Shown in pieces: positions 54,921 through 64,000 of a DNA stretch of 64,000 nt (its first letter is position 1; each line of letters starts with the position of its first letter). Position numbers and translations under genes: made by a program. Location: sequence record NZ_CP085281.1, one strand, 5' to 3'. The stretch is from a plasmid. The notes under the pieces are model-generated. The model had not been told where the DNA came from and made no database searches. It saw only the letters and a list, made by a program, of their open reading frames with translations.

Positions 54921-56867
54921 CTATTCGGCCGGCGGGGGCCGGTAGTTGCGCGGTGGGCGTCGCGGCGCCGGCGGCGGCGGAGTCTCCGAGATCCGCTGGC
55001 TGCGCGGAACACGTTGAGGTCCACCGAGATCGCGGTGGCGACCGTTGCCGTTCGATCCCGTCGCGGCCTGTCCGGATCCAGACGGCACGGGCGGGGCCGG
55101 CGCAGGGGTGGGAGCCCACGCCACCTGCTCGGCCGGAGCCGCCGGCGCAGGTGCAGGGGCGGACCTGCGTGGGCTGGGCGGCGGGGCAGCATGGCGGCGT
55201 GGTGTGCGAGTCAAGACCGGAGCGGTGGAGACCACCCGCCGCGGCTGCCCGATGTTCTCCGAGCCCAAGCCCAGGTAGCGGTCTTCCTCACGCGTCCGGA
55301 TCGTCCACAGGGTGATCGGTTCGGCACCCTCGATCGACACCTCCAACACCTGACCGGGGCCCTCCACCAAGGTCATGTCCGCTCCTCCGGCGACGGTATC
55401 GGGGCCCAGCAGGCGCAGCACGGTGCGGGCGGGCACCGTAGTAACGGTGCGGCCATCGAAGACCGCGACGTCGCAGGTGCGGGCGCCAGCGGTCGCGTAG
55501 AACAGTCGCTGATCGTCGTTGACGGTGGCGACCAGTCCCTCCCAGCGCTGCCGGTCATCGGTGTGGATGGCCACCACCGCGCCGGTCACCACCGCACGCA
55601 GCACCAGCTGACGTGCCACCTCCACACCGACCCGGGCGTCGATGCGACGGCGCTTGGGGGCGCCCGATTGATCCCACAGCGGAACTGCGGCCAAGGTCCC
55701 TTCGTCGAGCTGCCCGAGGATCTGTCCCGACGGCCCGATCGGCACCCGCACGTCGCGCACGACACCGAAGTCCACCGTCGGCATCTTCGCCGCGAGTGCG
55801 CGATCGCCACCGGGCAATCCGGCGTCGAGCATTTGCCGCTGAATTCCGGTGGGGCGGGACAGTTTTGCCTCGGCCAGCGGTTTGTAGGCCTTGCCGTGGT
55901 GGACGTAGCGGATGAGAACCCCGACCTGGACGTCGGCGACGCTAGTGGCTCGGGTCAACCGGATGACGGTGACCGTCTCCTCGGTGCGCCACGACCACCA
56001 TCGATCGAACTGACCCTGCGCCAGCAGTTCTGGGTTACCGACGTAGGTGGTGATGAAGTTGGGCCCAGACCGGATGTAGGACCACTTCTCCTGGTTGTCG
56101 ACCGGTCCGACCGGCGCCAATAGCACGTCCCTCATGGCGTCGAGGTCCTCGGCGGACAGTGCGTGGGCGCGGATCTGCTCCTGCTGCAGGCGCTGCACCG
56201 CACGGTGAGCCGCCGCGGCCAGCGCCTTGGGGCCGGCGCTGCGCGAGGGTCCACGCTCGACGATGCGGTCCAAGTTGTCCAACGAGTTGAGCCGCAGCAC
56301 CAGCCAGGTCCGCCGCTGGCCGACCAATGGCCGGGGCCCCACCGATTGCGCATACACCGTCCGATAGGCGGTGCCTGGCGGCACGTGACAGCCGGCCTCG
56401 ACGACGTCGATATCGATGTCGAGCCCGTACTGACTCATCAAGGACACCACCAACGACAACGGCAACTCACTGCCGCTGACGGTCCGGCCGCCCGACTCGG
56501 TGGTCAACGCCAGGTTCGGGCCCACTTCCACGGCGGCGACCAACGTATGTCCATCCCACCGCACGCCGGCATTACCGGAGATGACATTGATCTCGGTCGC
56601 CGGCGTCAACTCCGGCGGTAGTGGTTGGCGACGGTGCCGCAGGAAGGACCACACCACCGCGAGCCACTCGACGAGCACCACACGTCCCCGGATCGGGATG
56701 AACAGTGCGACTGCGCCAACGAGCAGGATCAGCACCGCCGCCCACACGGGCAGCACTTTGGCCAACGTGAAGGCGACGGTGATCCACACACCGATCCCGT
56801 AGACCAGCGCCGAGACCATGGGGATGCGGATCCACCGTCCCCGCGGCCGGGTCGTCTTCGCCATCAT
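54921..56867 (-). CDS. eccE: ESX type VII secretion system membrane component EccE
   Basis: Two N-terminal transmembrane helices (VSALVYGIGVWITVAFTLAKV, AAVLILLVGAVALFIPI), a large soluble domain and a Pro-rich tail. It is the last gene of the ESX operon, and its start overlaps the mycP stop. Confidence 0.75.
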   Translation of the reverse strand: MMAKTTRPRGRWIRIPMVSALVYGIGVWITVAFTLAKVLPVWAAVLILLVGAVALFIPIRGRVVLVEWLAVVWSFLRHRRQPLPPELTPATEINVISGNAGVRWDGHTLVAAVEVGPNLALTTESGGRTVSGSELPLSLVVSLMSQYGLDIDIDVVEAGCHVPPGTAYRTVYAQSVGPRPLVGQRRTWLVLRLNSLDNLDRIVERGPSRSAGPKALAAAAHRAVQRLQQEQIRAHALSAEDLDAMRDVLLAPVGPVDNQEKWSYIRSGPNFITTYVGNPELLAQGQFDRWWSWRTEETVTVIRLTRATSVADVQVGVLIRYVHHGKAYKPLAEAKLSRPTGIQRQMLDAGLPGGDRALAAKMPTVDFGVVRDVRVPIGPSGQILGQLDEGTLAAVPLWDQSGAPKRRRIDARVGVEVARQLVLRAVVTGAVVAIHTDDRQRWEGLVATVNDDQRLFYATAGARTCDVAVFDGRTVTTVPARTVLRLLGPDTVAGGADMTLVEGPGQVLEVSIEGAEPITLWTIRTREEDRYLGLGSENIGQPRRVVSTAPVLTRTPRRHAAPPPSPRRSAPAPAPAAPAEQVAWAPTPAPAPPVPSGSGQAATGSNGNGRHRDLGGPQRVPRSQRISETPPPPAPRRPPRNYRPPPAE

Positions 56868-58303
56868 TGCCTCCCTCGCCGAGCGCCGGTAGCGGCCACG
56901 ATGATGAAGACCACGATCACCGCGGCCGCGATCCCGCCGACCGTGATCGCGGCAGTCCACTTGGGCGCGGTGTCCGGCGGCGGGGGCGGTTTGGGCAGGG
57001 ACAGTTCAGCGGCCTGCACGGTCACTGCGGGTGCCCCCTGGACGGGGATCTCATAGGTCAGGGCTGCAACGGGGTCGATCAGCCCGCGACCAACGACGTT
57101 GTCCACGCCACGTGCCGGCGCGTGAGCGGTCGTGATGATCCTGGTGGCCACCTCGCGAGCGGTCATCTGCGGGAACCGGGAGCGCAGCAGCGCAGCCAAA
57201 CCGGAGACGTAGGCCGCGGCATACGACGTGCCGGCAATGGGCACCAGGCCGCCCTGATCGCCGGGCACGGCGTTGATCACCCCGGCGTTGTCGCCGTTGG
57301 ACAGCGACACGATGCCCGAGCCGGGAGCGGCAACATCCACCCAGGGCCCGGCCATCGAGTTCTCGGCCCGCACGCCATCGGGTGACACGAAGCCCACCGA
57401 GAGCACCAGGTCGTCGAACCATGATGGGGTCGACACCACGGTGACGCCGTCCCAGTTACGCGGGTCCTGCGGACGCGACGGGTCGGCCTCGGGGTTGCTC
57501 TTGCAACTCTGATTGCCCGCACCCGCGTCGACGGAGGCGTTGACGTTGCCGGCTGCCGCCACGACGAGGGCGTCTTTGACCTCGACGGCGTATTTGAGCG
57601 CGCCACCGAGCATGGCTTGATCGATCGGGTTGGACACCTTCACGCACGACACCACCGAGATGTTGATGACGCGCGCGCCCATGTTGGCGGCGTGCACGAT
57701 CGCCCGCGCCAAGGTGCGGATGTCGCCGGCGGTCCGAGAGTTGTTGGGATCGTCGGGATTCGCCGACTGGTTCTCGGGCATGTACGCGATCGACGTCTGC
57801 CGGATCGCCAGGATTTGGGCGTTGGGAGCTACCCCGACGAGACCATCGGTCGGCGCGGGGGCTGCACCTATGATCCCCGCGACGATCGTGCCGTGACCCT
57901 CACAATCGTCGAATCCGTTACTGCCAGAAGCGGGATCGACGTAGTCGCCACCGGCGATCATTCCAGGCAACCGGGGCTGGGGGCGTACACCGGTGTCGAT
58001 GACGGCCACGATCACCCCGGCTCCGGTGGAGAACTTGTGCGCTTGCGCGATCTGCAGTGCCGTCAGCGGAGGCGGCGGCTTGGCCAGATCGGAGTTGGGC
58101 AGTACTCCCCCGACCACGCAGGCACCGTTCTTGCGCATCGGCCCGTCAGGTCCTGGAGGACCATCGGGCGGGGCGGCCGCGACGTCGGGATTGGGTGGGG
58201 TGACGGCGCCGGCGCTGCCCAGTGGCGCCACCGCAACCAGCGCGGTCACCGCGGTCAGGACCGCCGCGGTGCGGGCGGCCGCGAGTAGGGCCCGGCGGGT
58301 CAT
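56864..58303 (-). CDS. mycP: Mycosin MycP, a subtilisin-like serine protease of ESX systems
   Basis: It has a signal peptide, the catalytic Asp (AVIDTGV), His (HGTIVAG) and Ser (GTSYAAAYVSG), and a C-terminal transmembrane anchor (AAITVGGIAAAVIVVFIIVAA). Confidence 0.9.
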   Translation of the reverse strand: MTRRALLAAARTAAVLTAVTALVAVAPLGSAGAVTPPNPDVAAAPPDGPPGPDGPMRKNGACVVGGVLPNSDLAKPPPPLTALQIAQAHKFSTGAGVIVAVIDTGVRPQPRLPGMIAGGDYVDPASGSNGFDDCEGHGTIVAGIIGAAPAPTDGLVGVAPNAQILAIRQTSIAYMPENQSANPDDPNNSRTAGDIRTLARAIVHAANMGARVINISVVSCVKVSNPIDQAMLGGALKYAVEVKDALVVAAAGNVNASVDAGAGNQSCKSNPEADPSRPQDPRNWDGVTVVSTPSWFDDLVLSVGFVSPDGVRAENSMAGPWVDVAAPGSGIVSLSNGDNAGVINAVPGDQGGLVPIAGTSYAAAYVSGLAALLRSRFPQMTAREVATRIITTAHAPARGVDNVVGRGLIDPVAALTYEIPVQGAPAVTVQAAELSLPKPPPPPDTAPKWTAAITVGGIAAAVIVVFIIVAATGARRGRQ

Positions 58304-63302: not shown

Positions 63303-63420
63303 GAGTGTCTCCGTTTCTCTGAAATGGTGGTGGTGATGCCGCTCCTGGATGGACACGCCAGCATGGCGCGCTGCGCTCCGAACAGCCTTGAGCGCAAGTT
63401 GGTGTGGTCGCCCGCTGTCA

Positions 63421-64000
63421 TCAGCTGGCCTCCTTGGCGTCGGTCTGACGCTCGGTGACCAGAGCACCAGCCGACACGGTTTCTTCCTCGTCGGGAGTAT
63501 GTCCCCAGATCGGAATGAGTTCGGTGTCAGGGCGTTTGACAGTGGCAGCCTTGTCCTCGTCGCGGCGGCGGGACCCGTGCAGCGGCATGCCCGAACCGCC
63601 GGGACGCATCGCCGGGGCGCCGGACGGGGAGGCGGGCACCGAGGGCGGCGCCGATCCTGGAAGGGGTCCGTCCCATCCGCCCGGAAAGCGGAATCCCGTT
63701 GACGCGCCGGACAACCCAGCGAGGCTGGGCACACGGATGGCCGCGGTGATCCCGGTCCCGCCGGAACTGCCCGCCAGTCGGTCCAGCGTCGGCGAGGACG
63801 GCTGGGTGTCGAAGAAGCCGGGGTTGTCCAGCCGGTGCTCGGGGGATACCTGCTTCATCAGGTTACTGATCTGCGACCCGAACTGCTGACCGACTTGTTG
63901 GCCGACCTGCTGGACCTGCTGGACGGCCTGTTGCGGCATCTGCGCAGCCTGCTGGGCTCCCGAGGCGATCTGCTGGGGAAGCTGCTGGATCAGCTGCTTG
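63421..64000 (-). CDS. Gln/Gly/Pro-rich secreted-protein gene (PPE-like C-terminal part), partial; it continues beyond the window end
   Basis: The frame stays open to base 64000. It has Q-rich and G/P-rich low-complexity sequence in the position normally held by PPE, upstream of esxB. Confidence 0.4.
   Translation of the reverse strand, partial: KQLIQQLPQQIASGAQQAAQMPQQAVQQVQQVGQQVGQQFGSQISNLMKQVSPEHRLDNPGFFDTQPSSPTLDRLAGSSGGTGITAAIRVPSLAGLSGASTGFRFPGGWDGPLPGSAPPSVPASPSGAPAMRPGGSGMPLHGSRRRDEDKAATVKRPDTELIPIWGHTPDEEETVSAGALVTERQTDAKEAS

Follow-up and report, generated by a model that had tools for sequence, protein, structure and literature searches.

The stretch of plasmid record NZ_CP085281.1 that we analysed (64,000 nucleotides, hereafter the window) ends in a block of ESX (type VII secretion) genes, at positions 54921–64000 on the minus strand. 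We are fairly confident that this block belongs to a complete ESX locus on a large mycobacterial plasmid, and that the locus represents a lineage of its own, outside ESX-1 to ESX-5 and ESX-P clusters 1–5, with the ESX-N/ESX-1AN systems as its nearest relatives. Plasmid ESX loci belong to an unusual conjugation apparatus with both type VII and type IV components, and they are thought to be the source of the chromosomal loci ESX-1, -2, -3 and -5. The locus is built wholly of known parts, and plasmid ESX diversity as such is well documented. We found no publication that types the ESX locus of the closest relative, plasmid p1-JPH1 of Mycobacterium avium subsp. hominissuis, or that names the mycobacterial clade to which both loci belong, and the publications we found that mention its strain, JP-H-1, do not address which ESX type p1-JPH1 carries.

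A listing of open reading frames (ORFs) together with family scans confirmed the minus-strand gene order that had been proposed from the sequence alone: the C-terminal part of a PPE gene, esxB-like, esxA-like, espG, espI-like, eccD, mycP and eccE. Curated family models back each of these genes except esxB-like. The PPE gene runs past the window edge, so that only the C-terminal 193 codons of this 452-residue gene (63421–64000) are visible; the whole gene, at 7686–9044 of the matching contig stretch described below (L002), contains a Pfam PPE domain (E = 7.3e-32). The espG gene (61616–62464) encodes a 282-residue PE/PPE chaperone (Pfam ESX-1_EspG, E = 4.5e-34), and the espI-like gene (59879–61432) a 517-residue MinD/ParA-type ATPase with a CbiA/ParA fold (Pfam CbiA, E = 4.1e-8), a deviant Walker A motif, KGGAGKT, at residue 269 and a proline-rich N-terminal half (16% proline in the first 250 residues). 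A MinD/ParA family protein is annotated at the same position in p1-JPH1 and in a Nocardia plasmid. EccD (519 residues, 58300–59859) has a YukD ubiquitin-like N-terminal domain and the EccD transmembrane domain in Pfam, and scores 236 bits against TIGR03920 (cut-off 95). The mycosin MycP (479 residues, 56864–58303; TIGR03921, 373 bits, cut-off 279) has a C-terminal membrane anchor and retains the catalytic residues D101, H137 and S360 in the motifs VIDTG, HGT and GTSYA. EccE (647 residues, 54921–56864; Pfam EccE, E = 5.8e-18; TIGR03923, 196.8 bits, cut-off 108) consists of two N-terminal transmembrane segments, the EccE domain and a proline-rich C-terminal tail (24% proline in the last 121 residues).

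The seven complete ESX genes in the window are, by comparison with their p1-JPH1 orthologs, under purifying selection: the ratio of nonsynonymous to synonymous substitution rates (dN/dS) ranges from 0.08 to 0.24, with eccE at 0.09 and esxB-like at 0.24. These ratios indicate that the locus is maintained by selection and not decaying, and since every gene is also full length we ruled out a decaying remnant.

The upstream half of the locus lies beyond the window. The exact EspG protein was found on one public contig, Logan DRR286159_173 (60.7 kb), which overlaps window positions 53903–64000 with 0 mismatches in 10,098 bases and extends 8,464 bases further. This extension holds PE (98 residues; 30.2 bits against the PE model), the remainder of the PPE gene, eccC, eccB and eccA. 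EccC is a single chain of 1392 residues that matches both the EccCa and the EccCb models above their cut-offs, EccB (527 residues) scores above the cut-off of its NCBIfam equivalog model, and the AAA+ ATPase EccA matches its model over the part available, because the extension ends inside the gene. The original prediction had pointed to eccB, eccC and PE as genes that should lie upstream, and all three, as well as eccA, were found on this contig, whose sequence matches that of the window exactly where the two overlap. The locus as a whole reads eccA, eccB, eccC, PE, PPE, (a 40-codon ORF), esxB-like, esxA-like, espG, espI-like, eccD, mycP, eccE, and EccB, EccC, EccD and EccE, together with MycP, all score above NCBIfam equivalog cut-offs. 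Judged by these family matches, the window closes with the distal half of a mycobacterial ESX (type VII) locus that is complete and intact.

The order of the visible genes had been described as ESX-2-like. The half within the window does fit ESX-2. The complete locus, however, begins with eccA and has nothing ESX-related past eccE: eccA is directly upstream of eccB, and eccE is followed by a PknH_C-domain gene, IS1245 and parA. According to Dumas et al. (PMC4779608), eccA comes after eccD/mycP/eccE in ESX-2, ESX-5 and ESX-P clusters 1–3, and ahead of eccB/eccC in ESX-1, ESX-3 and ESX-P cluster 4. The presence of the espI-like gene separates the locus from ESX-3 and ESX-5, as originally proposed and in agreement with published descriptions (PMC4791881; PMC4173767); an espI-like MinD/ParA gene is also found in ESX-1, in ESX-N and in plasmid ESX loci generally (PMC4791881; PMC5381665; PMC4173767).

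Sequence identity between the locus and the established plasmid types is low. Among the best 60 plasmid matches in a tblastn search of PLSDB with EccB, p1-JPH1 is 93.5% identical, followed by a Tsukamurella record (46.4%) and Nocardia plasmids (46 to 47%). An M. fortuitum plasmid reaches 40.9%, and every mycobacterial plasmid listed other than p1-JPH1 is at 41% or less. Plasmids of the pRAW/pMAH135 type are about 38% identical (pRAW itself 37.6%), pMYCCH.02 is 35% and M. abscessus pGD21-1 is 37% identical, and plasmids with EccB3-like (M. vanbaalenii, JS623) or EccB1-like (M. alvei, THAF192) proteins are at about 35 to 37% where they are among the listed matches. Plasmids pMKMS01 (ESX-P cluster 4) and pMFLV01 (ESX-P1 of Newton-Foot et al.) are not among the matches listed, and the best ESX-3-like and ESX-1-like plasmids were substituted for them. 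MycP gives a similar picture, with 91 to 94% identity to p1-JPH1 and at most 54% to everything else in the plasmid comparison. EccB does not support the placement among ESX-P1 to ESX-P5 that the original prediction implied: it is 38% identical to the pRAW type, its identity to plasmid systems that are related to ESX-2 or resemble ESX-3 or ESX-1 is 35 to 37%, and it groups in a tree with Tsukamurella and Nocardia. Typing by solved structures was non-discriminating: MycP scores about equally against MycP1, MycP3 and MycP5; EccB scores about equally against EccB3 and EccB5, both above EccB1; EccD matches EccD5 only; and EspG matches EspG1 and EspG3 about equally, with no EspG5 match. Because the scores against solved ESX-1, -3 and -5 components are nearly equal, the locus falls inside none of those types.

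The neighbour-joining tree of EccB (76 sequences, 100 bootstraps) comprises 50%-identity representatives, EccB1, EccB3 and EccB5 sequences derived from the PDB, and the EccB proteins of pRAW, pMYCCH.02, pGD21-1 and pCBMA213_2; its anchors cover ESX-1, -3 and -5, with M. tuberculosis EccB2 and EccB4 left out. The lineage of the window is monophyletic with a bootstrap of 100. Its sister is a pair of proteins from public read or metagenome assemblies (P0122 and P0042; bootstrap 84), this group is in turn sister to a Tsukamurella clade (bootstrap 99), and a wider clade takes in two Nocardia groups (bootstrap 79). The ESX-1, ESX-3, ESX-5/pRAW and ESX-2-related plasmid clades are all placed elsewhere, and the window EccB does not group with the pMYCCH.02, pGD21-1 or pCBMA213_2 anchors in this tree, from which M. 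tuberculosis EccB2 is absent.

Gene order points in the same direction as the tree. The Tsukamurella record and the Nocardia plasmid have a gene order identical to that of the locus: eccA, eccB, eccC, PE, PPE, esx, esx, espG, MinD/ParA, eccD, mycP, eccE. Newton-Foot et al. (PMC4791881) gave the name ESX-1AN to a cluster with operon-like organisation in N. brasiliensis, N. cyriacigeorgica and T. paurometabola. Mortimer et al. (PMC5381665) named it ESX-N and reported that its presence varies, that it is associated with genes of plasmid type and that an ‘unsampled plasmid’ was probably its source. Species names and gene order lead us to infer that the Nocardia clade of our tree is the published ESX-N/ESX-1AN. 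These systems are the nearest relatives outside the mycobacterial lineage (EccB 46 to 50% identical; shared clade with bootstraps of 79 to 99), but they occur in other host genera, their EccD, EccE and MycP proteins are only 32 to 39%, 30 to 35% and 47 to 52% identical to those of the locus, and the mycobacterial clade stands separate from them with a bootstrap of 100. With EccB only 46 to 50% identical, the locus is best regarded as a sister lineage of ESX-N/ESX-1AN and not as a member. Two Nocardia plasmids of 293 and 329 kb, NZ_CP108384.1 (Nocardia sp. NBC_01327) and NZ_CP107850.1, carry an ESX-N-type EccB, the former within the full ESX-N operon order; such Nocardia ESX-N plasmids fit the ‘unsampled plasmid’ donor of Mortimer et al. 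2017 (PMC5381665).

By searching 5.8 billion proteins with EccB we found a graded family at 58 to 98% identity, mostly on contigs of 50 to 180 kb, that takes in M. fortuitum, M. marinum and several further Mycobacterium strains. Past this family, EccB identity falls to about 50%, in Nocardia and Tsukamurella proteins of which many are on multi-megabase contigs. A scan of genome contigs retrieved relatives at MycP identities of 90% or less. Those at 74 to 90% comprise the slow growers M. avium, M. simiae and M. marinum and the fast growers M. fortuitum, M. palauense and M. rhodesiae JS60; between M. avium, M. simiae, M. palauense and M. rhodesiae JS60, MycP is 82 to 90% identical. One member of the lineage, with an EccB 73% identical to that of the window, is on a 6.29-Mb contig of M. 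riyadhense (GCA_905219515.1, contig CAJMWK010000001.1, 2870031–2891617), in the order eccA, eccB, eccC, a PIN/Phd toxin-antitoxin pair, PE, PPE, esx, esx, espG, MinD/ParA. Five contigs longer than 1 Mb carry this M. riyadhense copy, and on the 6.29-Mb contig it is adjoined by an ABC-transporter gene. The M. riyadhense genome paper lists only ESX-1 to ESX-5 and a plasmid ESX (PMC8356964).

The ESX system probably serves plasmid transfer, by analogy with pRAW. On the basis of what is known of these protein families, EccB, EccC, EccD and EccE would assemble the inner-membrane translocon, with EccC as its motor ATPase and MycP stabilising the complex. EccA would act as a cytosolic AAA+ chaperone, EspG would hand the PE/PPE dimer to the translocon, the Esx pair would be co-secreted, and the MinD/ParA-type EspI-like ATPase would regulate the system. 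Together with a type IV-like set encoded elsewhere on the replicon (VirB4, TcpC and an FtsK/TrwB-like coupling protein), the ESX system would then serve transfer of the plasmid, as it does in pRAW. Conjugation of pRAW requires both eccC and virB4 (PMC4173767), and the core gene set of ESX plasmids includes virB4, tcpC and espI, which co-evolve with the ESX genes (Mortimer et al., PMC5381665). At 150 to 173 kb, p1-JPH1 encodes an AAA_10 (VirB4-like) ATPase, TcpC, an FtsK/TrwB-like protein, an SLT-domain protein and an NlpC/P60 protein.

Alternatively, the plasmid-borne system might mainly secrete effectors (PE/PPE and Esx proteins, and maybe linked toxins) against competitors or host cells instead of transferring DNA. 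Within the locus itself are genes for PE/PPE and Esx substrates and for a dedicated EspG chaperone, and p1-JPH1, on which no relaxase is recognised, has further genes annotated as ‘type VII secretion target’ as well as a 688-residue ADP-ribosyltransferase 2 kb upstream of eccA. Yet the set of virB4, tcpC and coupling protein, which co-evolves with plasmid ESX (PMC5381665), is retained in p1-JPH1, the closest complete plasmid, and in the only experimental test of a plasmid ESX the system was essential for conjugation (PMC4173767). We consider a mainly effector-secreting system unlikely, while still a serious competitor, and the two roles are compatible and not mutually exclusive. The 688-residue protein of p1-JPH1 (L001 40003–42069) has its ADP-ribosyltransferase toxin domain at the C-terminus and is a candidate secreted effector.

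A plasmid location, which the original prediction had proposed, is supported both by the presence of eccB and eccC upstream and by flanks that form a plasmid backbone common to p1-JPH1 and four other genomes. Among 72,556 plasmids, the only megablast match to the 9-kb ESX region of the window is p1-JPH1 (NZ_AP020327.1, 191 kb), with 83.8% DNA identity over 100% of the query. The two plasmids have the same 12-gene ESX order (EccD 89% identical) followed by the same parA, helix-turn-helix (HTH) regulator, whiB, DUF6551 and dnaB genes, and synteny is continuous for 34 kb, from about position 30300 to 64000 of the window, parA and dnaB included. They are nevertheless distinct plasmids: in the window IS1245 and a PknH_C gene are inserted between eccE and parA, about 24% of 30001–54920 is unmatched in p1-JPH1, and an 11.9-kb recombinase element is shared with plasmid pS2b.

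The conserved backbone linked to the ESX locus occupies 43134–51947 on the minus strand, as judged by Pfam matches and an order retained in relatives. It consists of parA (51072–51947; AAA_31, E = 9e-26), a 140-residue ORF directly downstream of it (50657–51079), a tandem HTH regulator (49836–50588), a 342-residue ORF that we call orf342 (48583–49611), whiB (47904–48293; Pfam Whib, 95.9 bits), a DUF6551 gene (45700–46725) and dnaB with an apparent mini-intein (43134–45260; Pfam match). Two plus-strand genes lie between it and the ESX locus: IS1245, of the IS256 family (52518–53936; Transposase_mut, E = 1.6e-137), which is 99.9 to 100% identical to M. avium IS1245 copies, and, as cargo adjoining it, the gene for a PknH_C-domain protein (53994–54818; Pfam PknH_C, E = 1.6e-40). 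Both are absent at this site in p1-JPH1 and the four other relatives, in which parA follows eccE directly. Thus parA, dnaB, whiB and IS1245, all named in the original prediction as context genes, are confirmed; parB, named with them, was not identified, and the 140-residue ORF beside parA matched no family. Apart from p1-JPH1, the backbone block adjoins eccE in Mycobacterium sp. NPDC006124 (177-kb contig), Mycolicibacterium palauense (144 kb), a Mycobacteriaceae metagenome-assembled genome (163 kb) and Mycolicibacterium rhodesiae JS60 (276 kb).

The window is very likely plasmid DNA, as these genes and their neighbours indicate, and its host is most likely M. avium because IS1245 is 100% identical to M. 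avium copies. Its guanine-plus-cytosine (G+C) content is 66% throughout; published values for M. avium are 69% for chromosomes and 64 to 66.5% for plasmids (PMC12803027; PMC6883107). The window could instead be an ESX island derived from such a plasmid and integrated in a chromosome, as the M. riyadhense locus beside an ABC-transporter gene on a 6.29-Mb contig illustrates, and several tyrosine-recombinase clusters and insertion sequences in the window could mediate integration. Against an island stand the 34 kb of continuous p1-JPH1 synteny with parA and dnaB, the even G+C content, the identity of an 11.9-kb segment to plasmid pS2b, the shared backbone on relatives' contigs of 144 to 276 kb, and the lack of any housekeeping gene among the approximately 40 ORFs scanned across the 64-kb window, and we regard it as improbable.

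Still less probable, to the point that we give it little weight, is that the plasmid locus is an ESX-2-like or ESX-P cluster 1–3 system, a plasmid precursor or relative of chromosomal ESX-2/ESX-5: its in-window order of PPE, esx, esx, espG, espI-like, eccD, mycP and eccE equals that of ESX-2 and of pRAW ESX-P1, and the lineage joins the ESX-2/5 side of the EccB tree, though with a bootstrap of only 28, while eccA is at the opposite end from that in ESX-2, ESX-5 and ESX-P clusters 1–3 (PMC4779608), EccB is 38% identical to the pRAW type, 35% to pMYCCH.02 and 37% to the pGD21-1 type, and there is no tree grouping with those anchors.

Three known systems are similar to the plasmid locus in part. 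Chromosomal ESX-2 of slow growers shares with it the order espG, espI-like, eccD, mycP, eccE, a single-chain EccC and one PE/PPE pair; it differs in being chromosomal and in having eccA after eccE (PMC4779608), and the ESX-2-related plasmid anchors, 35 to 37% identical in EccB, are in another clade. The pRAW/pMAH135-type ESX-P cluster 1 (the ESX-P5 of Newton-Foot et al.) is likewise a plasmid-borne, complete ESX with an espI-like gene, and has virB4 and tcpC on the replicon, but its EccB is about 38% identical and in a separate clade, and its eccA is at the opposite end of the locus. Moreover, pRAW is typed as having a MOBF relaxase, whereas none is recognised on p1-JPH1, which is typed as non-mobilizable; and pRAW transfers among slow growers only, with no transfer to any fast grower tested (Ummels et al., PMC4173767), whereas the present lineage occurs in both slow and fast growers. 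The ESX-P5 of the pS2b-type giant linear M. avium plasmids (Yano et al., DNA Res 2026) resembles the locus in having eccA upstream of eccB, in its M. avium host and in lacking a relaxase. It has virB4 between eccD and eccC and groups with ESX-4-like systems (PMC12803027), whereas there is no virB4 inside the locus of the window; MycP of pS2b is 46% identical, and its EccB is not among the best 60 plasmid matches. For these pS2b-type plasmids, which are also relaxase-free, transfer without rolling-circle-like replication has been suggested (PMC12803027).

Several points weigh against reading the locus as a distinct, plasmid-borne lineage with a role in transfer. The deep nodes of the neighbour-joining tree are weak, with bootstraps of 12 to 34, and the tree contains no bona fide M. 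tuberculosis EccB2 or EccB4 anchor. Closure of the replicon was not seen, and the sole other copy is the 60.7-kb contig, which breaks inside IS1245. Scans of the 64-kb window found no type IV-like genes (virB4, tcpC or coupling protein), and those of p1-JPH1 are about 70 kb from its ESX locus. No relaxase was recognised on p1-JPH1, for which the MOB-suite call is non-mobilizable, and a requirement of a plasmid ESX for transfer has been shown for pRAW only. Finally, the chromosomal member in M. riyadhense means that a plasmid location is not obligatory for the lineage.

The Esx genes of the locus differ in how well they can be assigned. The esxA-like gene (62613–62912, minus strand) encodes a 99-residue protein that matches Pfam WXG100 with 29.9 bits (cut-off 27.3) and scores 32.7 bits against TIGR03930, under the cut-off of 44.85; FHG replaces WXG, and the invariant glycine is seen in the alignment. 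The esxB-like gene (62973–63302, minus strand) encodes a small helical protein of 109 residues, presumed from its position, its size and indirect evidence to be the WXG100 partner. Neither this protein nor its orthologs have a Pfam or NCBIfam match. An hhalign comparison with the profile of its WXG100 partner gives a probability of 50% (E = 1.7e-4), with an Arg-Gly turn aligned on the WXG glycine, and a low-confidence single-sequence AlphaFold model (predicted local distance difference test score, pLDDT, 53) has helices at residues 10–41, 48–68 and 73–85, compatible with a helical hairpin. The gene is kept at the same position in all relatives, but its assignment is the weakest gene call of the locus. 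The YxxxD/E secretion motif was not seen in either Esx protein when their C-terminal sequences were read by eye.

Between PPE and esxB-like there is a 40-codon ORF or conserved spacer (orf40; 63299–63421, minus strand), which is called as a gene on the Logan contig and has no family match. This stretch of about 120 nucleotides is conserved among relatives, but the conservation extends to all three reading frames, so that it may have a regulatory function instead of a coding one. The equivalent 123-bp stretch of p1-JPH1 bears the label ‘mtrD’ from a resistance-gene tool, an annotation that looks spurious. A 4-bp overlap had been claimed for every junction, but ATGA overlaps occur in only 2 or 3 of the 8 junctions. 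They are present at eccD/mycP and at orf40/esxB-like, and the mycP/eccE junction, ATGATG, would allow a 4-bp overlap where the gene caller took a 1-bp version. Gaps separate esxB-like from esxA-like (60 bp), esxA-like from espG (148 bp), espG from espI-like (183 bp) and espI-like from eccD (19 bp, with a GGGAGG ribosome-binding site).

Elsewhere in the window we noted several other features. An 11.9-kb element (14533–26465) is 99.9 to 100% identical to positions 130179–142111 of pS2b (NZ_CP076860.1), an M. avium giant linear plasmid, which indicates that two types of M. avium plasmid recently exchanged a mobile element. The element sits in a HerA-like ATPase gene and splits it (flanks at 13268–14548 and 26424–26867), and its cargo comprises two Phage_integrase ORFs (21197–23818 and 23803–25398), a DUF6262 gene and a GntR regulator. 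DnaB has a 235-residue insertion (43860–44564, minus strand) directly past the Walker A motif GVGK. The insertion opens with ALALNT and closes with THN, after which comes Ser; it looks like a mini-intein beginning with Ala, and without it DnaB would be 474 residues long. On the plus strand, 34827–39635 encodes a 1602-residue fusion of a methyltransferase and an SNF2-type helicase, which is common to p1-JPH1. By analogy with fusions on mobile elements, we take it to be possibly an anti-restriction protein. Next to it, at 39649–41948 (plus strand), are two ORFs of 355 and 414 residues without family matches and without an annotated p1-JPH1 counterpart at that position. A second cluster, at 1458–6882, comprises three long ORFs, among them one that has an integrase SAM-like domain, and is 81.7% identical to a segment of the 322 to 324 kb plasmids of M. 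intracellulare subsp. chimaera.

A broader proposition, on which we are evenly divided, is that the locus represents a sixth plasmid ESX lineage, sister of ESX-N, that has a relaxase-free parA/whiB/dnaB backbone, crosses the divide between slow and fast growers, and was captured by the M. riyadhense chromosome as an unreported sixth ESX locus. If this is true, the M. riyadhense copy is a recent and traceable case of the plasmid-to-chromosome migration that is proposed to have created ESX-1, -2, -3 and -5. The lineage links mycobacterial plasmid ESX systems to the ESX-N of Nocardia and Tsukamurella, and it adds to them a host range of both slow and fast growers, a relaxase-free backbone and, in a species closely related to the M. 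tuberculosis complex, a chromosomal copy. It thereby offers material for testing both the plasmid-to-chromosome model and ESX-dependent transfer without a MOBF relaxase.

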